Under the pieces are notes generated by a model, which ran no database searches, was not told the DNA's origin, and worked only from the letters and a program-made list of their open reading frames with translations. Both the position numbers and the translations under genes were made by a program. From positions 1 to 62,750 of the forward strand of contig JASMDC010000019.1 in the NCBI GenBank assembly GCA_030753015.1: 62,750 nucleotides of DNA. Reading direction: 5' to 3'. The DNA comes from Candidatus Undinarchaeales archaeon. GTDB lineage: Archaea; SpSt-1190; JASMDC01. Within the stretch, counting starts at the first letter, position 1. Each line of letters begins with the position of its first letter. Of the stretch, positions 1 through 36,167 are shown piece after piece.

Positions 1-65
1 TAATACAATAGGGGGCTGGCGTGCCGGTACTCGTCCGGAAAGTACCTTTCGGCTCTATCCCCCCC

Positions 66-110
66 CTCACGGAAGGGGACTTCCCACCGAAACAAAAAAA
101 AGAGTTAAAA
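66..110 (+). promoter_or_regulatory. Conserved promoter-like element, copy 1: palindrome GGAAGGGGACTTCC, then CCGAAAC, an A-run and GAGTTAAA (TATA-like), ending about 25 nt before the GTG at 134
   Basis: A near-identical roughly 45-nt element is seen at three loci (66-110, 15036-15080, 36125-36167). The TTAAA sits 25-29 nt upstream of the start codon in the two leaderless cases. Confidence 0.55.
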
Positions 111-133: not shown

Positions 134-1930
134 GTGGGAAGATGTAACTTTCGTCCCCGGCTGCTCTCGTACAGCCGTGGCCAAGGGTTCATCGTGGAGT
201 ACTTCCTCTCCTTCGCACTCTTCCTGTTCGTTTTCGTGTCAGTTCTCGTGCTGCTGGTCCAGACGCTCCTCCCCCGAGTCGACGACTCCCGTTTCTACAC
301 AAACACCATGATGGCGCGACGCGCGGCCCTCCAGCTCCTCACGGAGGAGGCAGGGTACGTTCAGTGGTGGAACAAGGACCTGAACACGCGGGTTCTGTTG
401 AACATCACCGATCATGGTGGCGAGCGCTCGAGCCATCGCTGGGTGAACATCTCTGGTCAACGCTTGAACAACTCCGGTATCGACATCAGCGTCATCGACT
501 TCAGCACCCTCCATGTGTACGAGCGCAGCTACATGTCGAACGAGCTGATCAAGTTCAATCCGGGAAACGATGACGCCTTGAACCGCGCGGACGAGATCCA
601 TTTCAAGGTGTTCTTGGGGGACCTCCGGTCGGTGGTCGTACACCTCTACTTCGACCGGCTCAAGAATGTCGTCCCGGTGGAGAAGTATATCGTGAACACA
701 GAGAAGGACACCGCGAAGCGCGGGCTTGCGGACGACCTCGATATCACCGCCAGGGCCCCGACCGGTTCGAAGACCGGCAAGGGGCGGACGTTCGACTATG
801 CCCTCTCCACCATTGACGTGCAGATCGGTCAGATGTCCCAGATCATCTCCGTGACCTGGACAGCGGAGAACGCCACCGACTACCTCACCGTAGGGAGGAC
901 CGATATGGACTTAATGCTCAATACCCATCCTTATCTCGACCTCTACTACAAGGTGACCGGGACGGACAATCCGTTCAATATGGCCTACATATTCAGGTAC
1001 GACTCGAACCTATACCAGGACACGGTAGAGCTGTACCCACTCGATGCCAACGCTACGGGCGTATGGCGGCATGTGCACATGAACCTCGAGGACGCCGCGC
1101 ACGAACTGATCGGTATCTCGAGCGGACACCCGTCCATCCACCTCACGGCCTTGTTTATCAATCTCACCGACGCCGAGCGCGACCGGTGGGAGGGTTCCAC
1201 CTTCCTGTACTTCGACGACATCACCCTCAAGCCACCGGACGACACCAAGGCCCTCACCGGAGGGGAGGGGACTGAGGACAGGATCCATGCCGTGGTCATG
1301 GAGACGCTGGAGCAGGCCCACTGGCTGGCACGGAACGAGATCCCCGAGAGCTTCGGGTTCACCACCGACGAAGGCCGCACACTCAACCATACCTCTATCG
1401 TCCGGTTCAGAGAGCTCCAGTCCATCGAGAGCTACGAGGAGCTCAAGCATGTCCTGGGCATAGACGATAAGTACCACACCCGTATCAAAATCGTCCGTCC
1501 CGTGTCCCGAAACATCATCAACGTCACGACCGACGAGACCATCTACGATTATGGTACCAACCGCACCGTGCACATCAACATCATCATGCCTCCATACGTC
1601 ACCGATAAGTGGCCCGAGGAGTGCACGTTCCCATCCTACACGTCCGAGGATCCCTGTATCCTGCTCGTCCTTCTCAGGCCGGACGGTACGTCCACGACGC
1701 TTGTCGTCCCCCATCTGGAGACTATAACCGAGAGGGTGGAGACGCGGTTCTTCACCGACAAGGACACCGTAAAGACGGGCGAGGTCGTGTTCTCACGGCT
1801 TGCATACGCCACCGACTACAACCTCACCATCACCGATCCGGCCGGTACCTATGGCATCCAGGTGTACGCGCTAGCCGCGGAACCGCGCGGGCTCCTCCAC
1901 GGGTACGGCACATTCTCACTGAGCCGGTGA
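134..1930 (+). CDS. Cell-surface glycoprotein with a type IV pilin-like (class III) signal peptide (leader MGRCNFRPRLLSYSRG | QGFIVEYFLSFALFLF...). It is rich in N-x-S/T sequons and may be a pilin-like or S-layer-like structural protein.
   Basis: There is a GTG start 25-29 nt after the TATA-like TTAAA of the conserved element, which suggests a leaderless mRNA. The N-terminus matches the RG|Q...EY pattern (a DUF361-like pilin signature) followed by a hydrophobic stretch. There are more than 10 NxS/T sequons. The product is a 598-aa ORF. Confidence 0.5.
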   Translation: MGRCNFRPRLLSYSRGQGFIVEYFLSFALFLFVFVSVLVLLVQTLLPRVDDSRFYTNTMMARRAALQLLTEEAGYVQWWNKDLNTRVLLNITDHGGERSSHRWVNISGQRLNNSGIDISVIDFSTLHVYERSYMSNELIKFNPGNDDALNRADEIHFKVFLGDLRSVVVHLYFDRLKNVVPVEKYIVNTEKDTAKRGLADDLDITARAPTGSKTGKGRTFDYALSTIDVQIGQMSQIISVTWTAENATDYLTVGRTDMDLMLNTHPYLDLYYKVTGTDNPFNMAYIFRYDSNLYQDTVELYPLDANATGVWRHVHMNLEDAAHELIGISSGHPSIHLTALFINLTDAERDRWEGSTFLYFDDITLKPPDDTKALTGGEGTEDRIHAVVMETLEQAHWLARNEIPESFGFTTDEGRTLNHTSIVRFRELQSIESYEELKHVLGIDDKYHTRIKIVRPVSRNIINVTTDETIYDYGTNRTVHINIIMPPYVTDKWPEECTFPSYTSEDPCILLVLLRPDGTSTTLVVPHLETITERVETRFFTDKDTVKTGEVVFSRLAYATDYNLTITDPAGTYGIQVYALAAEPRGLLHGYGTFSLSR

Positions 1931-3326: not shown

Positions 3327-4916
3327 CTACTCCTCGTCGAGCCAGGAATCGATGAGCTCCTCGTCCTCGTCGGTGGCGTCCTCCTTGGGCGCGGGCTTGA
3401 GACGACGCGCCGGGGGGTGCTCGCCCGCAGGACGCGGTGGCGGCCCACCCTCCTCAGGAGGGAGCCCGTCCCTGTCCTCGGGTGTCAGAGCGGCTTCTGG
3501 ACGCGTGAGCGCCTCGGGAGCCAGCCGCTCGATGATACGGAGCGCGTCCTCACGACGGTGAGCAACGGCCTGGTGGCGGTGCCATGACACATCCTCGGAC
3601 CAATCCTTGGGCACATCAGAGCGTAGCACCTCCACTCGGGGACGATCGATAGATGGCTCCAGAGCCGCACCGATGCGTCGATTGCGTTCGATCTGCTGGA
3701 CCGAGCCGAGCTCGTTCATGGTCTCCATCTCCGCTTCGGCCTCCCCCACGGGTATCTTTTGGACAGCTTCGCTGTAGGAAGGCGGCCGCATCGAGGAGAG
3801 GTAGACGTAGCTGGCGGCGAACACGACAAGAGCGAGGGCGAGCACGCTCGTCCATTCAGGGATCACCAATCCGGGCTCACGTTCACCGATGATATGGTAG
3901 GAGACGATGTTACCGGTCGCTGCTTCGATATCGCCCTCGATGATCACCTGCTCGCTCCCCTTCACAGCCAGGACCCTGAAGCGGTACCCGGTGAAGGGAC
4001 GAACGGTGTGGGGCCTTGTTATGCGGTAGCCCTGTGTCTCCAGCAGCGCCATCTCGTTGGTCACCTCGAGACGGCTTCGGAGGATGTTCTCGATGGACAT
4101 CTTGACGCTGCCGATGTTCGTGCAGGGTTCGCCGCCGCCGCAGGGACGGACCGCCGCCTTGTCGGTGGGCCTCATGCAGGTGCCGGCAAGGCAGACTAGA
4201 CCCTCGCTGCATCCGCAATCGCTGCAGCATGAAGTGCTGTTCTCCCCCTTCTCGCAGATGCGGTCACCGCACACGGGTCCCGTGTCGTCAGGCGGTACCG
4301 ACGGGACCTGCAGGGGCTCGGGGCTCGCACTCTCTGACGGTGTGGGCGAGACGGCTGAGGGGGACAGGCTCGTCTTCGGCGGCACGGGGGTGATGATGCC
4401 ACCCCTGTTTGGTGTCGGCTCGGGGGTCGGAGTAGGGGTGGGCTCGGGCGTGGGCTCGCCCTCGCGTACCTGGAACTGGACGTTCAGACGCTGGGAGAAG
4501 CTGCCCACCTCATTAGGGATGCAGTCGAGCCGGTACATCCCGGGGATCCAGTCATAGAACGAGCGGTCCAGGGTGATGCGCACGGAAAGGCCTGCTGCTG
4601 TCGTGGGCGGCTGTTCATCGCACACGGGGGGATCGGCATGGTCCCCCGGGCACAAAGCATAGGGCTCTCCCAGCGGATCGACGAGCCCGCACCGCAGGGT
4701 CCAGTTGCTCTCTGTCTCCACCACGTGGAAGTCCAGGACCACTTTCTCCAGCAGCGTGTGCTCGGGCGCCGGTTCGTACCCACGGTCAGTGAGCTCCACG
4801 AACATCCGCACCTCGTCCACAGCACAGGCCGCTGAAGCGACGACGAACATGGAGAGCAGGAGGAGGGCCGTCGTGCCCCCTCGTCCATCACCTTTCACGG
4901 CGCTGTAGCTGGCCAT
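3327..4916 (-). CDS. Secreted Cys-rich surface protein with a PT-rich linker, a C-terminal TM anchor and an acidic cytoplasmic tail
   Basis: An internal Met start (MASYSAV...) gives a Sec-type signal peptide. Other features are an EPTPEPTPTPTPEPTP linker, the Cys module CGDRICEKGENSTSCCSDCGCSEGLVC, a TM helix WTSVLALALVVFAASYVYL and an acidic tail ending IDSWLDEE. It is paralogous to the C-terminus of the 4966..8571 product. Confidence 0.55.
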   Translation of the reverse strand: MASYSAVKGDGRGGTTALLLLSMFVVASAACAVDEVRMFVELTDRGYEPAPEHTLLEKVVLDFHVVETESNWTLRCGLVDPLGEPYALCPGDHADPPVCDEQPPTTAAGLSVRITLDRSFYDWIPGMYRLDCIPNEVGSFSQRLNVQFQVREGEPTPEPTPTPTPEPTPNRGGIITPVPPKTSLSPSAVSPTPSESASPEPLQVPSVPPDDTGPVCGDRICEKGENSTSCCSDCGCSEGLVCLAGTCMRPTDKAAVRPCGGGEPCTNIGSVKMSIENILRSRLEVTNEMALLETQGYRITRPHTVRPFTGYRFRVLAVKGSEQVIIEGDIEAATGNIVSYHIIGEREPGLVIPEWTSVLALALVVFAASYVYLSSMRPPSYSEAVQKIPVGEAEAEMETMNELGSVQQIERNRRIGAALEPSIDRPRVEVLRSDVPKDWSEDVSWHRHQAVAHRREDALRIIERLAPEALTRPEAALTPEDRDGLPPEEGGPPPRPAGEHPPARRLKPAPKEDATDEDEELIDSWLDEE

Positions 4917-4965
4917 GGTTCGCGTCCTCCTCAGGAAGGGGGACCAAAGCATAAAAATGGACCCA

Positions 4966-7900
4966 TCACTGGAACCAGTCGGGAAGGTCCTCGTCCTCGC
5001 CCCCACCGCTGCCATAGTCGCCCGAGGGCGGTGCTGCCTGCTCGGGCGGTGCCTGGACCACCACGACCTGGGGCCTGCTCTGCATGACGTACATGGCACC
5101 TATGCCGATGATGGCGATCACGGCACCGATGAGAAGGGTCTGGACGGAGATGGGACCTTCGGACTTAGTCTCCGGGACGTGCCAAGAGACCAGTGTCTTG
5201 GTCTTGGTGTCCACCACTGCAGTGATGGCGATGCGCTCGTTTCCCTTTCGTGCGGTGATGACTACATCGTACTCGCCATCTGCGGTCTGTTGGAGTTCCG
5301 GCTTGCCGATCTTCCACCCATCGTTGCGGAGCTCGATGAGCCCGGCATCGGCGAAATCGTCTAACTTGATAGTGTCCATGACCTTCTGGACATCGACCTG
5401 ACTGTCCACGCACACTCCGTCCTTGCACTCCTTCTTGCCGGTGCAGCCGCAGTCCACGCAACAGGTGTTGTAGTTCTCGCCCGAGTCGCAGGAGTCGTCG
5501 CCGCACACGGCCTTGATGTCATCAATCTCCTTGACGCACTGGTTCTGCCTGCACCTGTAGCCGGGATCGCATCCACAGTCCGTGCAGCAGCTCTTGGACG
5601 TCTCGCCCTCACTGCACTGCAGGTCGCCGCACACCGTAGGGGGTGGCTTGGCGGGCGTGGCGACCGGTGTGGACGACGGCTGCGGCTGAGCACTGGTCGT
5701 GGGGCCCAAGGTGGTGACAGGTGTGGGTCCTCCTGAGACGACAGGTGTGGGCCCACCCGGTGGCATGGTGGAGAAGTCGCGGCAGAGGTGGGCGTTGGTA
5801 TCGCAGTACTGTCCACCGATGCAGTTGGCGTTCTCGCAGCAGTCGCCGCCCGCGAACCACGCTCCAGTACAGCACTTACCGCCGGTGCGCTCCACGCACT
5901 GGTGGTTCGATACCTCCTGGCATGTCGTGCAGGCGAGGGCCACGCACGTCTTGGACGTGTCACAGCTCTTGTCGCTGTCGCACCCGGAGTCATCGCAGCA
6001 CTTGCCGCCCGCGTACCACGTTCCCTGACAGCATTTCCCATCAGCTTCTGTATAGCATGTGGTGCCGCAGGGTACCTGGCCCACGTCACAGGCCAGGCTC
6101 GAGCACTGGTTGTTGGTCTGGCAGGTCTCGCCCGCTACCGTGCAGTCACCGTCGATGCAACAGGCGGCCCCGGCGATCCACGCGTCTGTGCAGCACTTAC
6201 CGCCATCGGTGCGGGCCACACAGGTGTGGTTGGAGGTCATCTGACATGACGTGCACACGAGGTCCTCGCACTTGTTGGCCTGGCAGGACTTGGCCGGATC
6301 GGTGCAGTCGTCGTTGCTGCAACAGACCGCTCCTTCCGTCCACACACCAGCGCAGCACTTACCGGTGGCGCCGACCTTGCACTCGCCTGCGCAAAGGTTA
6401 TAGCCCGCGATACACTGGGTGGTCGAGCAGGTCCCCTCGATGCAGGCGAACAGACCATCGCAGGCCGGGCCTGTGCATCCGGCAGGCGTGCCGGTGCCCC
6501 CTCCAGCGACGCACGCGTTGGCGGAGCAGGTCTCCCCGGTGCCCGTGCAGTCACCATCGGTGCAGCACTTGTCGCTACCCGCATGCCAGGTGGTATCGCA
6601 GCACTCCCCAGGGTTCTTGTTGCACGTGGTGCCGCACAGGGTGTAGCCGGTAACGCACGCATCCGTCGAGCACACATCCGAGACGCACGCGAAGTTGCCG
6701 GTGCAAAGGTTGGTGTCGGAGCACGCAGGAGGCGTGGTACACGTGTTGCTCGTGCACACCAGGTCGCCAGTGCAGTCATCCTTGATGCAGCACTTGTCGC
6801 TACCCGCATGCCAGGTCGTGGCGCAGCACTTCCCGGGATCCTGGTTGCACGTGGTGCCGCACAGGGTGTAGTCGGTAACGCATGCATCCGTCGAGCACAC
6901 GTCCGAGACGCACGCGAAGTTGCCGGTGCAGAGGTTGGTGTCGGAGCACGCCGCGGGCGCGGCGCACGTGTTGGCCGTGCACACCTGATCACCAGTGCAG
7001 TCCGCCTTCACGCAGCACTTGTCGCTGCCCGCATGCCAGGTCGAGTCGCAGCACTCCCCGGGATCGGCGTTGCACGTGGTGCCGCAGAACGTGTAATCCG
7101 TCACGCACGTGTCCGTCGAGCATGCGTCCGAGACGCATGCGAAGTTGCCGGTGCAGAGGTCGGTATCGGAGCATTCTGGGGGCGCGGTGCACGTGTTGTC
7201 GACGCACTCCTCCTCCCCGCAGTCATCATCGATGCAGCACTTGCCGCTACCCGCATGCCAGGTAGTGTCGCAGCACTCCCCGGGATCCTGGTTGCACGTC
7301 GAGCCGCACAGGGTGTAGCCGGTAACGCATGTGTCCGTCGAGCATGCGTCCGAGACGCACGCGAAGTTGCCGGTGCAGGGCTTGGTGTCAGAGCACCCGG
7401 CATCGTCAGTGCATAAGTGGGATACAGAATCGCAGGTCTTCTTCGCTACATTCTCACTACAATCGTCGCTGACGCAACACTCCCAGGCGGCCTGCCACAC
7501 GTTGTCGCAACACTCACCAAGGAGAGGATCCCCATCTATCTCATGGCACGTTCCGCCACAAGGAGGATTCTCGTACCCGTCAGCACAATCCGTTGGTGAA
7601 CACGTACACGTCTCAGTATCACAGGAGTCCCCCACACACATGAAGTTGTCACAATCGGCCGCAGTCACACATTTCTTCACGCATTTGAACTCTGCCGTAC
7701 ATCCCTCGGTCACTTCGCAATCACCATCAATACAGCACTCGGCCCCCTCACGCCACGTGCTATCGCCCTCACAGCACATCCCACTGCCCTTGACCTTGCA
7801 TGGACCCGGCGCCGGGCATTCCACAAAACCACTAGCGTCGCAACCGCATTTGGTACCGCCGTGTGCGCATTGTGTCAGCGAGTTACACTCGGACGCGTAA

Positions 7901-8571
7901 TCGTCGAACCGACTGCAGTAGCAGTCCGCGGTGTTCGTCGGATCCTCGCCCTTGCCCGTATCGCAGCAGTTCTCGGTGGGATTCTCGCACGCAGGATAAA
8001 GAAAGTCCGCTGGCACAGCGTCAGCCCCGCACGCCTCGTCGCAGCACTGGTAGTCATCACCACACCCGGTACGGGTGTCGAAGACCGACCCGCCGCACAC
8101 GGTGTTCCCCTCGGTGCAGCAATAGCCCACAGGGTCCCCTCCGGTGCAGGCCACCGGTGCGACCACGTCCACGCATGCCTCCTTGCAGCAGTCGTAGTCA
8201 CCTCCCCCCGGCTTCTGCCCGCAGCCGGAACCGAACTGGCTATTGCCGCCAGGGCATGTGGGCGTATCCACCGTGCAACAGGTACCGCCCAGGTCTGCTA
8301 CGCAGGCATCACCTCCGCCGCCACCACCGGTGACGGGTGAGCACATCCCCGGGGTCCCGGCTGTCCACTCGCATCCGTTGGAGGCCGTGCAGTCGCCTTC
8401 AACAGTGACACTGCTGCATTGCTGGCAAGCAGCTCCGGACCAATAGCATTTGCCAGCATCGCAAGCGCTCATATCTGCGCATCCGTCGCAGTTGAACGAG
8501 TCACACACGCCCATTCCGAGCGCGAGCGTGATGAACATAACTGTAAGGATAGTAAAGGTCTCCCTTCTCAT
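4966..8571 (-). CDS. Giant (about 1200 aa) extremely Cys-rich surface protein with tandem repeat modules and a C-terminal TM anchor
   Basis: It has a Sec signal (MRRETFTILTVMFITLALGMGVC). A CCxxxW(H/Q)AGxxCCxxDDC motif recurs about 10 times, and there are about 4.5 near-identical 75-aa repeats. A PT-rich linker is followed by two CGDxxCxxGExxxCCxDCGC modules, then a TM helix and an acidic tail ending LPDWFQ. Confidence 0.7.
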   Translation of the reverse strand: MRRETFTILTVMFITLALGMGVCDSFNCDGCADMSACDAGKCYWSGAACQQCSSVTVEGDCTASNGCEWTAGTPGMCSPVTGGGGGGDACVADLGGTCCTVDTPTCPGGNSQFGSGCGQKPGGGDYDCCKEACVDVVAPVACTGGDPVGYCCTEGNTVCGGSVFDTRTGCGDDYQCCDEACGADAVPADFLYPACENPTENCCDTGKGEDPTNTADCYCSRFDDYASECNSLTQCAHGGTKCGCDASGFVECPAPGPCKVKGSGMCCEGDSTWREGAECCIDGDCEVTEGCTAEFKCVKKCVTAADCDNFMCVGDSCDTETCTCSPTDCADGYENPPCGGTCHEIDGDPLLGECCDNVWQAAWECCVSDDCSENVAKKTCDSVSHLCTDDAGCSDTKPCTGNFACVSDACSTDTCVTGYTLCGSTCNQDPGECCDTTWHAGSGKCCIDDDCGEEECVDNTCTAPPECSDTDLCTGNFACVSDACSTDTCVTDYTFCGTTCNADPGECCDSTWHAGSDKCCVKADCTGDQVCTANTCAAPAACSDTNLCTGNFACVSDVCSTDACVTDYTLCGTTCNQDPGKCCATTWHAGSDKCCIKDDCTGDLVCTSNTCTTPPACSDTNLCTGNFACVSDVCSTDACVTGYTLCGTTCNKNPGECCDTTWHAGSDKCCTDGDCTGTGETCSANACVAGGGTGTPAGCTGPACDGLFACIEGTCSTTQCIAGYNLCAGECKVGATGKCCAGVWTEGAVCCSNDDCTDPAKSCQANKCEDLVCTSCQMTSNHTCVARTDGGKCCTDAWIAGAACCIDGDCTVAGETCQTNNQCSSLACDVGQVPCGTTCYTEADGKCCQGTWYAGGKCCDDSGCDSDKSCDTSKTCVALACTTCQEVSNHQCVERTGGKCCTGAWFAGGDCCENANCIGGQYCDTNAHLCRDFSTMPPGGPTPVVSGGPTPVTTLGPTTSAQPQPSSTPVATPAKPPPTVCGDLQCSEGETSKSCCTDCGCDPGYRCRQNQCVKEIDDIKAVCGDDSCDSGENYNTCCVDCGCTGKKECKDGVCVDSQVDVQKVMDTIKLDDFADAGLIELRNDGWKIGKPELQQTADGEYDVVITARKGNERIAITAVVDTKTKTLVSWHVPETKSEGPISVQTLLIGAVIAIIGIGAMYVMQSRPQVVVVQAPPEQAAPPSGDYGSGGGEDEDLPDWFQ
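6440..7440. repeat. Intragenic tandem repeat of about 4.5 copies, 225-nt period, roughly 90% identical
   Basis: The string gcgaagttgccggtgca(g/a)aggttggtgtcggagca recurs at 6689, 6914, 7139 and 7361. This produces look-alike ORFs in other frames (6583..7416, 6237..6992). Confidence 0.8.
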
Positions 8572-8683
8572 ACTAAGAAACGGGTCTGTATGCAATAAAT
8601 ACCTTTCCCCCCAAGCGCTGCGAAACGGGGCTCACGCTTATAAGCATGGACGGCCACCGAGGTGCCCGGCTCCCTGCCCACGG

Positions 8684-9832
8684 ATGGTGACCATGGCCCC
8701 GATCCCGCCCACCTCGCCCCTGGTGCTCGTCCCGCTGCTGGCACTGGGCGCCATCACCTCCCTCACCGACATCAGGGAGGGCAAGATCAGGAACAAGCAC
8801 GTCTTCCCTTTCATCCTTCTGGGTATCCTCAGGATGCTCATCCTGGACACCCACGGTTACCTAGGCCTGCTGAACACGGGTATCGCCCTGGCCGCGGGAT
8901 TCGGGCTCTGGCACCTCAACCTCTGGAGCGCGGGCGACGCCAAGCTCTTCCTCGCCTTCGCTGCCCTCGTCCCTCTCAACGATCTGACCATGCAGTTCAA
9001 TCAGGTCTACTGGTTTCCCTCCTTCATGGTGCTGGTGAACACCTTCGTGCCGATGTTCGCGCTCATGCTCTTCCGACTGCTGTTCTTCACACCCCTGGCC
9101 ATGAAGACGATGCTCCTGCGACGCGTCCTCAAACCGGTCCAGGTGGTGAGCGTCGGGATGGCGCTCTTCGTGTTCATCTGGCTGGGCCGGGTGCTCATGG
9201 ACGCCCTCGGGCTCCCCCAGGTGTTCATCATCAACCTGCTCATCATGTTCGCCTGCATCGAGGTCATCGACCGGGTGGCACCGACGGGTGCGATGCCCGT
9301 GTACGCAGTCCTTTCGGTCGTCCGGCTCGCCGTGGACCCTGGTGTGTGGGAACCGGGCTTCATCGCCGCGTTCGGGACCCTCCTCATATCCTTCCTCCTG
9401 CTGCGCTACTTCGTCATCTACATGGGCCACCACTTCTACAGCACTCCCTGCGCTATCGACGAGCTCAAGCCCGGGATGATGCCCTCGGAAGGCATCGTCG
9501 AGAAGGACGGGAGGTACCACAAGGTGGAGCTCATCACCATCAACATCCTCTCTGCCATGCGCCTCAAGAAGCTCAAGCTGGCCTTCGAGATGCGGTCGAA
9601 GGGTCTCAACGAGGAGGAGGTCGAGCGCATCAAGAAGCTGGCAGAGGACGATAAGCTCCAGTTCGATGAGATCCTCGTCCAGCAGACCACGCCCTTCGCC
9701 CCCTTCATCTTCCTCGGCGCTCTCCTCACACTATATACCGGGGGCGATCCCGTGACCTACGTCAAGGTGGTCCATCCCGATCTCGTGCGCAGCATATTGC
9801 CAGCGGTCCTGGCACCCTACATCGGCCTCTAG
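8684..9832 (+). CDS. A24-family prepilin/preflagellin peptidase homolog (long form with a C-terminal extension), PibD/EppA-like
   Basis: A catalytic Asp motif (SLTDIREGKIRN) lies near the N-terminus, and a second Asp motif (WSAGDAKLF, GxGDxK-like) is present. The protein is polytopic. It is divergent from the giant Cys-rich surface-protein gene. Confidence 0.6.
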   Translation: MVTMAPIPPTSPLVLVPLLALGAITSLTDIREGKIRNKHVFPFILLGILRMLILDTHGYLGLLNTGIALAAGFGLWHLNLWSAGDAKLFLAFAALVPLNDLTMQFNQVYWFPSFMVLVNTFVPMFALMLFRLLFFTPLAMKTMLLRRVLKPVQVVSVGMALFVFIWLGRVLMDALGLPQVFIINLLIMFACIEVIDRVAPTGAMPVYAVLSVVRLAVDPGVWEPGFIAAFGTLLISFLLLRYFVIYMGHHFYSTPCAIDELKPGMMPSEGIVEKDGRYHKVELITINILSAMRLKKLKLAFEMRSKGLNEEEVERIKKLAEDDKLQFDEILVQQTTPFAPFIFLGALLTLYTGGDPVTYVKVVHPDLVRSILPAVLAPYIGL

Positions 9833-13444: not shown

Positions 13445-14900
13445 AAAGTTGGTGAACTACCCCTCTCCAAGTAGAGATGCTATGAAAATTATTGAACCAC
13501 CGTGTTGCCTTACCTCAGCAAAAGAGGTGACGCAAGATGAAGCACGGACACCAAACAGCACAGAACCTACAGATCGAGTACGAACAACTAACAACCCAGG
13601 AGCTGCACAAGAGATACAGGTACTTCATTGCCAAGGACGTGCACAAGAGGAGCACCACATACAATGTGCGGGACAGGATGGGCACCATCCTGGACCATGG
13701 TGAGACGGCCACGGACTACCAGGACCTCCATGACCGGCTCGAGCCATATCTTGACTCGGCGCTGATCGTGATGGAGGCGAGCACGAGCTACTACAAGCTC
13801 TACCAGGCATTCCTGGAGAACGGCTACGACGTTGTCGTCGCGAACACCATCAAGATACGGTCGCTTTTCCCCAAGGATGACAATATCGACGCTAGGAGGC
13901 TGTCGGACATGCTGCGCTTGGGATCGGTCCCGATCTCGTTCATCCCCGGTCCTGAGACCCAGCACCTGCGGAAGCTGGTCCGGACCAGACACTCCCTGAT
14001 GCAGGAGAAGGTCCGATGGAACAACCGCATCCAGGCACTTATCGACCTAGAGGGACTTAGGATGCCGCCCTTCAATGCCTTCACCAAGACCTGGACCCGG
14101 GCACTCGTCACGTACCTTGAAAGACCGAATGCCAGCTACGAGCTCAAACACACGTTCACGCACTATACCCGGGTGGAGCGACACCTCGAAGAGATCTCAA
14201 AGGAGATGCTCAGGTACACCGTCGAGCACTGGCGAGAAGAGTACGAGTTCCTCCAAACGATCCCCGGGATGGGGCGCATCACTGGATGCTACGTGATCGC
14301 CGATGTCCTGCCCATCGAACGGTTCGCAGTGAAGAAGGGACAGAAGAGTCTGAGACGGTACGTTGGTGTCGTCCCTGCGTTCAGCTCGTCGGGCGATTCC
14401 GTTTCTCAGGGCAGGATCCCAAAAGGGTCGAGCCGGAAGCTGCTTCGCTGGGCACTCGTTGAGGCAGCTAATGCAATAACAAGGACGAAAACCAAACTTG
14501 CTCAGTTCTACAAGATGAAGAAGAAGCAGAAGAAGTGTTCCGGAAAGGCCAAGATCGCCTTGGCTCACAAACTCTCAGATATCATCTATCACGTTCTTAC
14601 GACCAAGAAGCCATACGTGGCATCATGAACTGGAGGTATGAATGAAAGACCGATGAAGGCATGGAGGTGGTAAGGCACGCTGCCCTTGAAGCCCGTGTGT
14701 ATAATACACTCAGTAGAGAGTGGGCAGCCAATGACTCCACATAGTGGGCCAACACGTTAGGAGCGTGCCAGTACCCTGATCGGAGAATGTCGTCAAAGGG
14801 CCTTACCACCAAAATGTCTAAATAGGAGGACGCATATAAATGTAACGAGGGACGCAACACGGGACCGGATGGGGAGAAAAAACAAATCTGATTCCCTCTC
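13445..14900 (+). mobile_element. IS110-family insertion sequence (boundaries approximate)
   Basis: GC content drops relative to the flanks. The element carries a DEDD-type transposase gene plus long noncoding ends, as is usual for IS110. I could not identify TIRs. Confidence 0.5.
13537..14628 (+). CDS. IS110-family transposase
   Basis: It has an N-terminal DEDD region (YFIAKDVHKRST resembles VGIDVHK) and a C-terminal domain typical of the IS110/IS1111 family. Codon usage is lower-GC than the surroundings. Confidence 0.75.
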   Translation: MKHGHQTAQNLQIEYEQLTTQELHKRYRYFIAKDVHKRSTTYNVRDRMGTILDHGETATDYQDLHDRLEPYLDSALIVMEASTSYYKLYQAFLENGYDVVVANTIKIRSLFPKDDNIDARRLSDMLRLGSVPISFIPGPETQHLRKLVRTRHSLMQEKVRWNNRIQALIDLEGLRMPPFNAFTKTWTRALVTYLERPNASYELKHTFTHYTRVERHLEEISKEMLRYTVEHWREEYEFLQTIPGMGRITGCYVIADVLPIERFAVKKGQKSLRRYVGVVPAFSSSGDSVSQGRIPKGSSRKLLRWALVEAANAITRTKTKLAQFYKMKKKQKKCSGKAKIALAHKLSDIIYHVLTTKKPYVAS

Positions 14901-14949
14901 TGGCCTAAATAATTTTCATAGGAGGGGCTTCCCGCTTCGACGCTGTTCC

Positions 14950-15035
14950 CAGCTTCACGGGCGCATCGGGTGGTCCCCACCCTGATCGATCCTGAATGTT
15001 GATCGCAGCGTTCAGGTCACGGTCGATGATAAGAC
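14950..15035 (-). pseudogene. Remnant of the 3' end of an IS200/IS605-family tnpB (OrfB)
   Basis: The minus-strand translation is ...LIIDRDLNAAINIQDRSGWGPP. DRDLNAAINI is the hallmark C-terminal TnpB motif. There is no upstream Zn-finger or RuvC part. Confidence 0.35.
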
Positions 15036-15080
15036 CTCTCGGAAGAGGACGTCCCGCCGAAACAAAAAAAGAGTTAAAGA
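15036..15080 (+). promoter_or_regulatory. Conserved promoter-like element, copy 2 (CGGAAGAGGACGTCCCGCCGAAACAAAAAAAGAGTTAAAG)
   Basis: The TTAAA at 15075-15079 is 24-28 nt before the ATG at 15103. Confidence 0.55.
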
Positions 15081-21276: not shown

Positions 21277-21659
21277 TCCTATGTACCCCTGGCAGCGGTT
21301 AGCAGGGTCCGGTGCTTAAAAACATTTCGCTTACGGCCGGAAGTAGGAGAGTATAATGCAGGCGCTCATGTCGTTCGGGGGGGACGATAATATCCGGAAA
21401 CGTGAATCGTCCACTCAATCTTTATAACCCATGAAGGGGAATATAATGACATGCTCGACCAGGGCATGCCCGCGTTCGATGGGCGGCTCTCCCACTATCA
21501 GGAGACAGGGGAGTGCCCAACCTCGTTGAACGCCCGTAACGAGGATTCTGACGACCTCTCCGGACTGCTCTGGGAGGACCTTTTCGCCATGCCATAGTGC
21601 CGCATGAGCCATTAAAATTTAAGCAATGACTCAGTTCTCTGTTGGTAGCAGGTAGACCC

Positions 21660-24600
21660 ATGGCCACAAAGCCACCGATCGCCGGCCCTCGTCGCGCCCA
21701 GCGACTACGCCAGCGGGACGAGCATATCAGCTCTGCCCAGGACCACGAGGACGCCGAACGGTGGTTCGAGGCCGCGCGGGATTGGCTACATGCCGGTCTC
21801 CCCCTCCGGGCAGCAGCTGCGTTCGCGAGAGCTGAGCTGTGGAGCGATGCCGCAGAGGCCTATGAGGAGGGCGAAGAGTGGGCCGACGCCGCCCGGGCCT
21901 GGTCGAAGGCTGGAGAGGCGATGGAGGCCGACGGCCTGTGGTACGAGGCATCACAAGCCCTCGACCGCGAGAGCGTCTGCCGCGAACATGTCCGAGAAGA
22001 GACCGAGATCCGTCGCAAGCTCCATAAGGCAACCTCTCTAGAGGCGAAGGGCGAACCGGCCGAGGCCGCCAAGGCCTTCGAGGAGGCCGGAGAGCTCGTG
22101 CGCGCCGCGGAGAACTGGGAGGAGGCCGGACGCGAGCCTGAAGCAGCACGATGCCTTGAGCGGGCCGGTGATAACGCCCGGGCCGCGGTTCTCTATGAGC
22201 ATGCCGGGATGTGGCGTGAGGCCGCCGAGTGTCATCTCAGGGACGAGCGCTGGACCTCCGCTGCCGAGGTCTTCGAGAGGGCAAAGGACCACCCTGCCGC
22301 CGCGACCTACTTCGAGCGCAGCGGGAACCTAGAGCAAGCCGCTGAGAACCGGGAACGTGGAGGTGACTGGGACAGTGCCGCCGCCCTCTGGGAGCAGGTC
22401 GGGGAGCGTACCCGGGAGGTCAAGGCCCTTGAGAAAGCCGGCCGTTGGGCAAAGGCAGCCAGCATCCATGAGGAGCTCGGTGACCAGCGGAAGGCATCTG
22501 CTGCTTGGCGCAAGGGCATGCGCCCCGACCGGAGCGGCAGGAGCCGGGGTCTGGCCATGGAGGAGGCGGAGCGCTGGGCGGACGCCGCCGAGGCCTGGGC
22601 CGAGATCGGCGAGGCGGAGCGGGCCGCCCAGGATTGGGAGAAGGCCGAACGGTGGGAACGGGCCGCGGAGGCGTGGCTCGTCGCCCGGTCGTACGCCCGG
22701 GCAGCTCGGGCTTTCGAGAAGGACCGGGACTGGTTCAATGCCGCCCTCAACTTCGGTGAGGCGGAGGCCTGGGACGACGCAGGAAGGAACTGGGAGAAGG
22801 TTGATGAATGGAGCCGGGCCGCACGTGCATGGTCGAACGCCGGTGACCGGGCCGCTGCCGCACGCTGCTGGGGTCGGGCTGGTGAGTGGGAACGGGCCGC
22901 AGGTCACTACGAGGCCGCTGGCGACCACGCCTCTTCCGGTGAAGCCTGGCGTCGCGCGTCCCGATGGGCCGATGCCGCACGCGAACTGGAGGCAGCCCAG
23001 CAATGGAAGGACGCCGCCGAGGCCTATCGGAAAGCGGAACGTTGGTGGAAGGCCGCTATGCTGTTCGAGCGGGTCCGCGAATGGCCTACTGCCGCCGAGT
23101 GCTTCGAGCAGGCCCGGGACCTTCCCAAGGCCGCACTGTACTACGAGCGGGCCGAACGATGGGCGGACGCGGGCCGCTGCCAGCTGGCCGTGAAGCGTTA
23201 CCCGGAGGCGGCCGCCGCGCTCGAGCGTGCTGGCGACATAGAGAAAGCGGCTGCTGCCTGGGAAAAGGCCAACGACTTCGCCAAGGCCGGTCGAGCATGG
23301 GAGCGCCTCAAGCGATGGCGCCGGGCCGCCGCCGCGTTCCAGCGCGCGGGGATGCTCGCTGATTCCGCCTCTTCATGGGAGCGCGCCGAGGAGTTCGACA
23401 AGGCGGCGAAGCTGTACGAGGGGAACGAGGACTGGCCCGCCGCCGCGCGCATGCTCAAGGCGGCCGGGAAACCAGCGGCTGCTGTGTTCGAGAAGGCTAA
23501 GGACCTAGAAGCAGCGGCCAGCTGCTATGAGGATGAGGAGAACACCCTCCGGGCCGCGGAGCTGTGGCAAGAGCTAGGGAACCTCCAACGCGCAGGCACC
23601 CTGTTCCTTGAGTCTGGACGGCCCGAGGACGCCGCCGTCGCCTTCGAGGAGAAGCTCCTGTGGAGTGATGCGGGTGACGCGTGGCGCTCCGCAGGACGGC
23701 TCGAGGAGGCCGCACGGGCTTACCAGAAGGCCGAGCGTCAGGATGACGCTGCGACCTGCCTGGAAGAGGCAGGCAAGTACACCAAGGCCGGGCGGCTCCG
23801 AGAGGAACTGAAGGCCTACGTCACCGCCGCAGAGGACTTCGAACGGGATGCTAAGTGGGACCGCGCAGCTGCCGACTGGGAGCGCGCCGGACGATGGGAG
23901 GAGGCAGGGCTGGCCTGGGAACGGGCCAAGGATTCCGGCCGAGCTGCCGAAGCGTTCTCCCGGGCCGGCGATCCCGCAAGGGCTGCGTCCCTGTTCGCCA
24001 ATGCAGCCCTCCACGAGCAGGCCGCCAAGGCCTATGAGAAGGCAGGCGACTGGGAGCATGCGGCCCTCTCCTGGGAGCATGTGGGCGAACATGCCAAGGC
24101 CGCCCAAGCCCTGGAGCGAGCGACCGCCTGGGACCGTGCAGCCCGTCGCTGGGAGGCCGCTGGTGAGCCCGCTCGTGCTGCTGCTGCTGCCGAACGGGCC
24201 GGGCTCTTCGACGACGCGGCCCGCCTTTGGGAAGAGGCCGAGGAACTGGAGCGAGCAGCCGAAGCTAGCCAGCGCACCGACGATGCGGCTCGCACCGCTC
24301 GCCTCTGGGATGCGGTCGGGAAGGGCGAGCACGCAGCACGTTTCCACCTCGCTGCGGGCGATCCCGAGAAAGCGGCTCCGTTGCTAGAGCTTGCAGGGCG
24401 TATCGAGGAGGCCGCAGCCGCTTACGAGGACGCCCGCGACATCGCCAAGGCGGCACGGCTCTACGAGTCCGCCGGGGACGTCACCAAGGCAGCCAGCCTC
24501 TACGAGCGACTGGGCGAGCACGCCAAGGCCGCCAAGCTCCATGCGAGCCAGGCCAACGCCCCTGAAGCTGCCCGTCTCTACGAGTCCATAGGCGAGTTCG

Positions 24601-25565
24601 GGGACGCTGCCAAGTACTTCGAGGCCAGCGGTGACTTCTCCCGGGCAGGGGATAGCTACGAGAAGGGTGGTAAGTTCACCGACGCGGCCATGAACTTCGC
24701 TCGCTCCGGGGATATGGCCCGAGCAGGAGCGAGCTTCGCTGCCGCGGACGACTTCGCCCGTGCTGCAGAGGCATTCACCGAGAACGGCGACCACGTCCTG
24801 GCGGCCGAGCAATGGGAGAAGGCCGAGGAACCTGCCAAAGCGGCCGAGGCCTACGAGCGGGCCGAGGCGTTCGACAAGGCCGCCGAGGCCTATGAACATG
24901 CTAACGAACTGGAGAAGGCCGCGCGTCTATTCACCCTGGTCCGCTCCTTTGAGCACGCGGCAGAGCTCTTCACCAAGCTCGGTCAGCATCGGGAGGCAGG
25001 CGTGTGTCTCGAGCGGGCGGAGCATTGGAGCGATGCGGCGGAGTCCATGGAACTGGCCGAGGACTGGGAGCAGGCCTTGGAGGACCACAAGCGGGCCGGT
25101 CATTGGGAGCGGGCCGCCAGTGTATGCTTCAAACAGAACCGGCTCATGGACGGCGTGGACCTCTTGCTCAAGGCCGGGAAGAACGAGGGCGCCGCCCGCC
25201 ACCTCTTCGAGAAGGCCTCACATACCATCATGGACCTGGACGACACCTGCACGCTCCTGGAACGCGCACAACGGATACACCGCACCGGCTCCATCGACGG
25301 CGCCCACCGCATCATCGCTGGCGCACTCAAGGGCCGGCTCGAGGACCTCCATAAAGGCACGTCCATGATGACCGATGACGCTGAGTTCGCCTTCCACGCT
25401 TCCAAGCGCTTCCTCCAGTTCGCGCGAGAAGAGGAGCGCAAGCTCGCTGCGAAAGCGCCTCGCAAGGTCCAGCACGCTGTGCGCATCTGCCCGGAATGCG
25501 GTGAGGAGATACGGCTCGCTAAGGTGCCGAAGTTCTGTCCTTTCTGCTCCAAACCGCTCGCGTGA
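21660..25565 (+). CDS. Giant alpha-helical repeat protein, with about 95 copies of a 13-residue AAxx(Y/W/F)ExAG(D/E)(W/F)xx repeat and a C-terminal CxxC...CxxC zinc ribbon
   Basis: The 13-residue periodicity is visible along nearly the entire 1300 aa. The C-terminus reads CPECGEEIRLAKVPKFCPFCSKPL. An ATTAAAATTT box lies upstream. Confidence 0.7.
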   Translation: MATKPPIAGPRRAQRLRQRDEHISSAQDHEDAERWFEAARDWLHAGLPLRAAAAFARAELWSDAAEAYEEGEEWADAARAWSKAGEAMEADGLWYEASQALDRESVCREHVREETEIRRKLHKATSLEAKGEPAEAAKAFEEAGELVRAAENWEEAGREPEAARCLERAGDNARAAVLYEHAGMWREAAECHLRDERWTSAAEVFERAKDHPAAATYFERSGNLEQAAENRERGGDWDSAAALWEQVGERTREVKALEKAGRWAKAASIHEELGDQRKASAAWRKGMRPDRSGRSRGLAMEEAERWADAAEAWAEIGEAERAAQDWEKAERWERAAEAWLVARSYARAARAFEKDRDWFNAALNFGEAEAWDDAGRNWEKVDEWSRAARAWSNAGDRAAAARCWGRAGEWERAAGHYEAAGDHASSGEAWRRASRWADAARELEAAQQWKDAAEAYRKAERWWKAAMLFERVREWPTAAECFEQARDLPKAALYYERAERWADAGRCQLAVKRYPEAAAALERAGDIEKAAAAWEKANDFAKAGRAWERLKRWRRAAAAFQRAGMLADSASSWERAEEFDKAAKLYEGNEDWPAAARMLKAAGKPAAAVFEKAKDLEAAASCYEDEENTLRAAELWQELGNLQRAGTLFLESGRPEDAAVAFEEKLLWSDAGDAWRSAGRLEEAARAYQKAERQDDAATCLEEAGKYTKAGRLREELKAYVTAAEDFERDAKWDRAAADWERAGRWEEAGLAWERAKDSGRAAEAFSRAGDPARAASLFANAALHEQAAKAYEKAGDWEHAALSWEHVGEHAKAAQALERATAWDRAARRWEAAGEPARAAAAAERAGLFDDAARLWEEAEELERAAEASQRTDDAARTARLWDAVGKGEHAARFHLAAGDPEKAAPLLELAGRIEEAAAAYEDARDIAKAARLYESAGDVTKAASLYERLGEHAKAAKLHASQANAPEAARLYESIGEFGDAAKYFEASGDFSRAGDSYEKGGKFTDAAMNFARSGDMARAGASFAAADDFARAAEAFTENGDHVLAAEQWEKAEEPAKAAEAYERAEAFDKAAEAYEHANELEKAARLFTLVRSFEHAAELFTKLGQHREAGVCLERAEHWSDAAESMELAEDWEQALEDHKRAGHWERAASVCFKQNRLMDGVDLLLKAGKNEGAARHLFEKASHTIMDLDDTCTLLERAQRIHRTGSIDGAHRIIAGALKGRLEDLHKGTSMMTDDAEFAFHASKRFLQFAREEERKLAAKAPRKVQHAVRICPECGEEIRLAKVPKFCPFCSKPLA

Positions 25566-35243: not shown

Positions 35244-35302
35244 CCGAGGGGCCGCTGTATCCAAACCCCATATAAAGCTATACGTGCACAAGGTAGTTCG
35301 CC

Positions 35303-35842: not shown

Positions 35843-36124
35843 GACGCGATCACTGTCGACATTATTCAGTGATCGTTCTTGACATCCACCCCCAATAAAT
35901 AGTAGGTCGTTCATCATTATATATGCCCCGGGGGTGGCGTGCCAGTATTCCACATTTTACTGAAATATTAATAAGAATTTAATACTATTTTAGTACTAGA
36001 TTTGGGGTCGCCTGTTTATTGTATGCATGTTCGCCCACCTTCACCGGTACGCGATCCGTCCCATGGTTGAAAACGCATGGGATTTCTCGAACACGTTCAA
36101 TATTACTAAGGATTCATCCCTTCC

Positions 36125-36167
36125 CTCTCGGAAGGGGACTTCCCGCCGAAATAAAAAAGAGTTAAAA
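36125..36167 (+). promoter_or_regulatory. Conserved promoter-like element, copy 3 (CTCGGAAGGGGACTTCCCGCCGAAATAAAAAAGAGTTAAAAC)
   Basis: The TTAAA at 36162-36166 is about 32 nt upstream of the alaS ATG at 36198. Confidence 0.55.

Follow-up and report, generated by a model that had tools for sequence, protein, structure and literature searches.

The window analysed here is the whole stretch of 62,750 nt from a Candidatus Undinarchaeales archaeon, and its GC content is about 62%. A conserved repeat occurs three times in it, always on the plus strand, at positions 66-110, 15036-15080 and 36125-36167 (copies 1 to 3). A search with the 23-mer core CGGAAGGGGACTTCCCRCCGAAA and up to 3 mismatches matched exactly these three copies and nothing in 100 dinucleotide-preserving shuffles, which confirms the number and arrangement of copies given in a first-pass annotation of this DNA. 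In the repeat search of the window the three copies are grouped as family D16. Families D1-D15 of the same search are the repeats within two large ORFs: one of about 1300 aa at 21642-25565 on the plus strand, consisting of Ala/Glu/Trp-rich repeats with a period of 39 nt (13 aa), and a Cys-rich one of about 1200 aa at 4966-8595 on the minus strand, containing four 225-nt tandem repeats and further 160-nt repeats. Downstream of the copies lie the gene for a 598-aa protein without any Pfam match (copy 1, start codon GTG 134), a polyprenyl synthase gene of the GGPP type (copy 2, PF00348, ATG 15103) and alaS (copy 3, ATG 36198), three genes that are functionally unrelated. From the end of the hexamer TTAAA(A/G) to the start codon the distance is 23 nt for copies 1 and 2 and 30 nt for copy 3. 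The first-pass annotation had described a 45-nt unit of palindrome plus TATA box, and had proposed that the palindrome is a transcription-factor site defining a small regulon, or that the whole is a strong consensus promoter that is reused.

When the copies in front of unrelated genes are aligned, the similarity stops exactly at …GAG^TTAAA (^ marks a junction here and below). The repeat proper ends at 104, 15073 and 36161 and the hexamer lies outside of it. The conserved block comprises about 39 nt and reads …CGGAAGGGGACTTCCCRCCGAAAYA6-8GAG. To the left the similarity extends beyond 45 nt: copy 3 is part of a block of about 315 nt (35848-36161), copy 2 is joined to a block of about 130 nt at 14925-15035, and copy 1 runs past the edge of the window into a tnpB gene, as seen in an overlapping contig (L021). 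Of the 45-nt unit the palindrome block is thus real, but TTAAA(A/G) is host DNA and the repeat is longer towards the left. As argued below, the conserved terminus is very likely the left end (LE) of a transposon whose opposite terminus is the right end (RE). We aligned seven LE junctions, four of which are located before different, unrelated genes and one of which is from contig L001. Homology begins exactly at T(T/A)TAA^CTC when read on the strand that encodes tnpB (the minus strand of the window); the A-run varies from 5 to 9 and the tip is GAG, GAGAG or GAC.

Scanning genome contigs with GGAAGNGGACNTCCCNCCGAAA we obtained 6 single matches, of which only those in L004 (Undinarchaeota) and L001 are homologous. 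The 12 matches of GGACNTCCCNCCGAAANAAAAA in metagenome contigs are all due to chance and lack GAGTTAAA, and the motif scan of viral contigs gave no matches. L001 (JASLPY010000216.1) is a 2.8-kb contig from the MAG bin of a Kiritimatiellia bacterium. The same LE, with its LE-proximal block, is present at 1640-1860; TTAAAG comes next, and this LE copy sits upstream of a lysine-rich ORF. L001 is most likely a mis-binned Undinarchaeales contig.

For copy 1 the following features were assigned:

1-104, minus strand: LE portion of a full-length element, very likely of the IS200/IS605 family and TnpB-only, from the L021 sequence; the conserved LE terminus is at 66-104
105-110, plus strand: TTAAAA, very probably the host TATA box of the 598-aa gene, and transposon target, from the empty sites in L023, L032 and L034

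A protein of the Candidatus Undinarchaeales MAG GCA_030750015.1 matches the 598-aa protein with 100% identity. The corresponding contig of this assembly, JASMIZ010000055.1 (L021), overlaps with the window such that window position 1 is L021 position 5148, and over the 11,930 nt of overlap there are 10 mismatches; we treat both as the same genome. Some of these 10 mismatches are concentrated at the very start of the 598-aa ORF, in its first codons (window 134-150 against L021 5281-5297, GTGGGAAGATGTAAC vs GTGGGAAGAGGTAGC), where a relative's contig (L034) carries the version of the window. They point to strain-level variants or to another assembly of one and the same population. In L021 an intact tnpB gene of 379 aa lies at about 3952-5091, immediately left of the point that corresponds to window position 1; it is on the minus strand and diverges from copy 1. 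Its product matches the Pfam families OrfB_IS605 (9e-30), Cas12f1-like_TNB (4e-25) and HTH_OrfB_IS605 (9e-14), scores 355 bits with the NCBIfam model guided_TnpB (cutoff 100) and aligns over residues 3-354 with the ISDra2 TnpB structures 8BF8, 8EXA and 8H1J (E = 1e-60). Past the tnpB stop codon L021 reads gtgaactacccctagctgacgcaaggggcttcccgc…, and this block recurs at window 14925-15035, twice in L007 and once in L004. A gene for the Y1 transposase (TnpA, PF01797) was not among the genes called in the loci that we fetched. To the left of the full-length element, L021 1-3950 contains small genes (RHH-like, NTP_transf_2/Polbeta and several hypotheticals) in a place where relatives carry a DUF2341 gene (compare L023 7531-9954). 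Possibly this stretch is a small island, mobile or toxin-antitoxin-like, that adjoins the right end of the transposon.

At copy 2 the arrangement is nested:

13452-13476, minus strand: first half of the RE terminus of a gene-less miniature (gtgaactacccctctccaagtagag), by comparison with the uninterrupted RE in L007, L004 and L021
13477-14924, plus strand: nested IS110-family element of about 1.45 kb with its transposase gene at 13537-14628, from Pfam, NCBIfam and the junctions
14925-15035, minus strand: rest of the RE including a TnpB-coding remnant, from tblastn with the L021 TnpB
15036-15073, minus strand: LE terminus of the miniature (copy 2), from the core matches, the alignment and the comparison of the filled site with the empty sites in L029 and L030
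15074-15079, plus strand: TTAAAG, very probably the host TATA box of the polyprenyl synthase gene, and transposon target, from the empty site in L029 and L030

A tblastn search with the TnpB of L021 gave a match at window 15036-14917 with 82.5% identity over 40 aa (E = 6e-15). The same block of about 105-130 nt, found in the window, twice in L007 and in L004, codes on the minus strand for residues ~339-379 of TnpB (E values of 1e-14 to 1e-17 in tblastn), and its terminus is the RE terminus of the full-length element. An uninterrupted RE is present at L007 8505-8640 and 9778-9871, at L004 3437-3577 and in L021 from 3946. A stretch at 14921-14941 had earlier been listed as a degenerate partial copy of the repeat. 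The similarity is real, but the stretch lies in the RE of the same transposon, which is split here by the IS110-family insertion. The inserted transposase is recognised by Pfam (DEDD_Tnp_IS110 and Transposase_20) and by the NCBIfam model transpos_IS110 (196 bits, cutoff 140). Reading the junctions against the uninterrupted RE, we located the insertion point in the putative RE terminal hairpin CCCCTCT-ccaagt-AGAGGGG, with the dinucleotide AG repeated at both junctions. The IS110-family element itself has short subterminal inverted repeats (ATGAAAATTATT / AATAATTTTCAT), and the same insertion is present in L031 (ENA ERZ27245248). We rejected the idea that the IS110-family element targets the palindrome, since its insertion point is within the RE hairpin of the TnpB element; a single insertion was seen. 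An independent structured RNA or MITE as the identity of the ~105-nt block and an integron-like cassette array as that of the locus were dropped, because the block proved in tblastn to be the 3' end of tnpB. Without the IS110-family element, copy 2 consists of RE and LE only, about 175 nt with no intact gene.

For copy 3 and the neighboring PEMT-like gene we noted:

35848-36161, minus strand: LE half of a non-autonomous derivative of about 660 nt (copy 3), by comparison with its complete form in L004 and L007
36162-36167, plus strand: TTAAAA, presumed TATA box of alaS and transposon target, from its geometry and the LE alignment
35270-35277, plus strand: ATATAAAG, very probably the TATA box native to the PEMT-like gene, with no insertion beside it and 25 nt before ATG 35303; the site is filled in L007

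L007 is a contig of a relative with about 90% nucleotide identity (its AlaRS is 95% identical) and, apart from the region of the PEMT-like gene, is collinear with the window. In the Undinarchaeota MAG contig L004 the complete 660-nt derivative lies between the PEMT-like gene and alaS (3437-4103); in L007 it lies upstream of the PEMT-like gene (8505-9171) and ends in the 45-nt element. Its layout is RE, a remnant of the tnpB 3' end, an AT-rich block of about 280 nt and LE. The different locations of this derivative in the two contigs, alaS in L004 but the PEMT-like gene in L007, demonstrate that it is mobile. The window retains only the right ~315 nt of the block, to the right of AGGACGC, and judging from the sequence the RE half of copy 3 appears to have been lost by deletion between AGGACGC direct repeats. 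Lacking the RE, copy 3 is probably immobile. The alaS site of L007 holds a different, more decayed derivative. We found no empty alaS site, because the insertion is common to the window, L004 and L007, and in a distant relative identified by its AlaRS (L008, 66% identity, low GC) the upstream region is too different to inform on this point. Within the remnant upstream of alaS, at window 35849-36000, there are an 8-bp inverted repeat (GATCACTG-n11-CAGTGATC), 60 nt of very high AT content by the standard of this genome and, at about 35917, a good TATA-like box (TTATATAT); these features might represent an internal promoter or a small RNA. A motif of the same remnant, GGGGGTGGCGTGCCAGTA, recurs near copy 1 (window 11-32), and the full-length element of L021 contains nothing that corresponds to the remnant block.

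Empty sites were available from relatives for two of the copies: L029 and L030 (90% protein identity) for the polyprenyl synthase, and L023 (90%), L034 (86%) and L032 (77%) for the 598-aa gene. An exact-protein look-up with the polyprenyl synthase of the window found nothing. At the polyprenyl synthase gene the empty site reads ggccaaaagttg^ttaaag^atatacgccttcggtacaaggtaATG, with the boundary after ccaaaagttg, and the filled site of the window reads tgccaaaagttg (GTGAACTACCCC…RE…LE…CAAAAAAAGAG) ttaaag^attagcgccttcggtagaaggtaATG, with the element in brackets, or in its core ccaaaagttg(GTGAAC…AAAGAG)ttaaag. At the PEMT-like gene it is the window that is empty (ccaaaccccat^ataaagctatacg; longer reading ccaaaccccat^ATAAAGctatacg…ATG) and L007 that is filled (ccaaaccccat(gtgaac…660 nt…gagagt)taaagatatgcg; longer reading …TAAAGatatgcg…ATG), and the distance from box to ATG is 25 nt in both. 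At these two sites the filled and the empty alleles differ by the inserted element alone, without target-site duplication, except for a possible difference of 1 nt at the PEMT-like site. The empty site of the 598-aa gene in L023, L032 and L034 is cactcgataccg^TTAAAAagtaccacgg…tttGTG (…gataccg^TTAAAA), and the filled site in the window is …AAAAAAAAGAG^TTAAAAagtaccacgg…tttGTG. The match of copy 1 with its empty site is limited to the LE junction. In L021 its RE is flanked by other DNA than that of the empty site, so that a later rearrangement must be assumed there. As the empty sites carry TTAAA(A/G) and no duplication is seen, the hexamer is host sequence that predates the insertion, and the element ends at …GAG.

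The same TTAAA(A/G) box is located 23 nt before the same start codon in the repeat-free relatives, that is in L023, L032 and L034 for the 598-aa gene and in L029 and L030 for the polyprenyl synthase gene. From comparing these orthologous upstream regions it is clear that the TATA box alone is kept. About 20 other genes of the window also have an AT-rich, TATA-like box, ending about 18-38 nt, mostly 20-26 nt, before the start codon, from which leaderless or near-leaderless promoters look like the norm in this genome. Judged by conservation and spacing, the genes downstream very probably use TTAAA(A/G) as their TATA box, in a leaderless or near-leaderless geometry. On this point the first-pass annotation holds. 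The typical spacing of 20-26 nt between TATA-like box and start codon suggests that transcripts are mostly leaderless in this Undinarchaeales genome.

On the tnpB strand the hexamer reads as TTTAA, which directly precedes the LE in all seven aligned junctions (once as TTATA-A). The empty PEMT-like site of the window, ATAAAG (TTTAT on the tnpB strand), is one base off. In the 62.7-kb window, with both strands counted, there are only 18 occurrences of TTTAA. Of these, 15 are in the 8% of the sequence that is non-coding, and most of the non-coding occurrences lie 22-43 nt upstream of start codons. Of the sites with TTAAA on the sense strand of the gene at the distance of a TATA box, three are occupied. 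The near-fixed distance of the copies to the start codons follows from this distribution, because the target TTTAA is almost confined to the TATA boxes of promoters. The first-pass annotation had named a dispersed repeat unrelated to gene starts as the finding that would refute its reading. In spirit this is what we found: the repeat is mobile, and its link to gene starts exists only because the target is the TATA box.

LE and RE have CGGGAAG(T)CCCCT in common, in both cases with a short predicted hairpin after it, and their tips are not inverted repeats of each other. The LE hairpin (CCCCTTCC-GAGA-GGGAAGGG) lies about 31 nt from the tip, and the RE hairpin (CCCCTCT-ACTTGG-AGAGGGG) 8 nt from the tip. 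The palindrome GGAAG-GGGA-CTTCC overlaps with the LE hairpin region, and its pairing has been lost without compensation in copy 2, in the PEMT copy of L007 and in the alaS copy of L007. Predicted folding of the hairpins is no better than in shuffled controls (z from -0.1 to -1.75), and with about 7 copies there are too few sequences for covariation to distinguish between the two overlapping hairpins. In IS608 and ISDra2 hairpins at the ends are recognised by the Y1 transposase (TnpA) on single-stranded DNA, and it is by analogy with these elements that we assign the putative hairpins here. The LE hairpin of ISDra2 and IS608 is located roughly 16-19 nt from the tip, unlike the ~31 nt of the present element. 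Every derivative that we compared with the full-length element has retained the 3' end of tnpB together with the RE. By analogy with known TnpB elements this region is a candidate for an omega-RNA. Rfam searches gave nothing at the gathering threshold for the window and L007 and nothing at E <= 1 for the full-length element. A tRNA-linked att site was ruled out, as there are no tRNA genes in the window.

Taken together, we are highly confident that the conserved block is the left end of an IS200/IS605-family, TnpB-only (IS1341-like) element, represented here by one full-length element and by two gene-less or decayed miniatures (PATE/MITE-like). Insertion directly 3' of TTTAA, with the target abutting the LE and without target-site duplication, is a hallmark of the IS200/IS605 family; the element also has putative subterminal hairpins, and its tips are not inverted repeats of each other. 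It shares the full-length TnpB, the insertion 3' of a fixed pentanucleotide at the LE without duplication, and the conserved tnpB 3' end and RE expected for an omega-RNA with ISDra2 and with the elements of Sulfolobus islandicus, and it would also resemble them in its putative hairpin-forming ends in place of terminal inverted repeats. For the S. islandicus elements, which encode SisTnpB1, TTTAA has been reported as the TAM and LE-flanking motif (doi 10.1101/2023.03.06.531077). The flanking motif is thus the same as in S. islandicus. Unlike these elements, the present one resides in a DPANN host (Undinarchaeales), no tnpA was seen in the loci examined, and all insertions characterised here are at promoter TATA boxes and in one orientation. 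Gene-less IS200/IS605 derivatives that keep both ends, the palindrome-associated transposable elements (PATEs), have been described in Haloquadratum (PMC3119063) and in Geobacillus (PMC10055086). Like these, copy 2 and the 660-nt derivative keep both ends and the putative omega-RNA region and have no intact transposition gene, and the 660-nt form is found at different sites in relatives. Unlike PATEs, copy 3 is without its RE, and the derivatives are few and seen only at promoters. In the literature searched we found no paper on IS605-type elements that target archaeal TATA boxes, and nothing specific on IS elements of Undinarchaeota beyond a census paper.

On the tnpB strand each copy has the form TTTAA^CTCTTTTTTT(G/A)TTTCGGYGGGAAGTCCCCTTCCGAGAGGG…(tnpB or deletion)…CGGGAAGCCCCTCTACTTGGAGAGGGGTAGTTCAC^. 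The LE hairpin region, including the palindrome, may be what a Y1 transposase recognises on single-stranded DNA, in analogy to the relatives discussed above, and TTTAA is the expected TAM of the element's RNA-guided TnpB nuclease. Insertions would then be placed exactly at the upstream border of TATA boxes and with the LE towards the gene, because in a genome of 62% GC TTTAA is found almost only there, about 23 nt upstream of starts. The host TTAAA(A/G) is expected to remain in place as TATA box after insertion, and the A-rich, purine-rich tip of the LE (AAAAAAGAG) would take the position of the BRE, which probably keeps essential genes such as alaS expressed. As native promoters tend to be purine-rich at the BRE position, promoter function is plausibly kept after insertion. 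The only orientation seen is that with the LE towards the gene. Insertion in the opposite orientation would part the TATA box from the start site and is likely selected against. More tentatively, we consider a transposon that homes to TATA boxes and has adapted to the streamlined genome of its archaeal host: TTTAA, its target and TAM, would be the TATA box itself, its LE tip would act as a surrogate BRE making insertions harmless or even beneficial at essential leaderless promoters (alaS, GGPP synthase), and the substrates of TnpB and its omega-RNA would be promoter regions. Such an adaptation is possible, though we would not expect it to hold.

Compatible with the transposon reading, and to be regarded as a speculative addition that is probably not correct, is the proposal that the LE has been shaped as a portable BRE or activating sequence, or as an outward promoter, so that insertion maintains or raises transcription and copies are retained for this reason. 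The tip of the LE at the TATA box is a purine-rich A-tract (AAAAAAGAG) in a position where native promoters tend to be purine-rich and AAAG-like, insertions are found at essential genes (alaS, GGPP synthase), the one at alaS being common to three lineages at about 90% identity, and decayed copies keep the LE tip after having lost all else. Retention of the tip could, however, be a simple constraint, as its deletion would risk damage to the TATA box. The variation of A-run and tip described above argues against a precise BRE, and the sample is small. Putative mobile promoters are reportedly known from the work of Matus-Garcia et al. 2012 on 'promoter propagation in prokaryotes'. The likeness to them lies in a near-identical sequence directly before unrelated genes that is spread by a mobile element. 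Here, unlike there, the TATA box is host-derived and pre-existing, the mobile part merely abuts it, and any promoter activity of that part is hypothetical.

The regulatory readings of the first-pass annotation fare far worse. According to them the palindrome is the operator of a TrmB- or Lrp-type regulator and forms, together with BRE and TATA box, a small regulon or a strong promoter reused by three genes. Three copies in the same orientation directly before genes at near-constant distance, and an inverted repeat upstream of a TATA-like box, do fit this description. In the relatives of about 90% identity, however, the orthologous promoters have the TATA box and neither palindrome nor CCGAAA nor A-run, which speaks equally against a transcription-factor site and against a reused consensus promoter. 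The block is physically the end of a tnpB element, it is present before the PEMT-like gene in one lineage and missing in another, its palindrome arms degrade without compensation in the three copies mentioned above, and the genes concerned have no function in common. We consider an operator highly improbable. Least credible of all is a minus-strand signal unrelated to transposition, for instance a small RNA gene, or a terminator of the archaeal oligo-T type (TTTTAACTCTTTTTTTTGTTT) together with a hairpin. A T8 run does lie beside the hairpin on the minus strand, but before and not after it; no minus-strand gene ends at copies 2 or 3, Rfam finds nothing, and presence/absence polymorphism with exact boundaries fits insertion rather than a conserved terminator.

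With the transposon reading, the IS200/IS605 (TnpB) family gains an Undinarchaeales element with PATE-like derivatives, of which the consistent location at TATA boxes is only mildly notable. For a compact TnpB of 379 aa from Undinarchaeales, a DPANN lineage, the boundaries of LE and RE are now defined, and there is an expected TAM as well as a putative omega-RNA region. For annotation the lesson is that a strikingly conserved palindrome beside a TATA box, even when its spacing to the start codon is constant, can be the end of a transposon beside its target, and not a regulon. The empty and filled alleles constitute a natural matched set of promoters for asking how much the BRE region matters. 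For the organism the finding means that an IS200/IS605 element targeting TTTAA in a GC-rich archaeon with leaderless genes would be channelled almost exclusively to TATA boxes, those of essential genes included.
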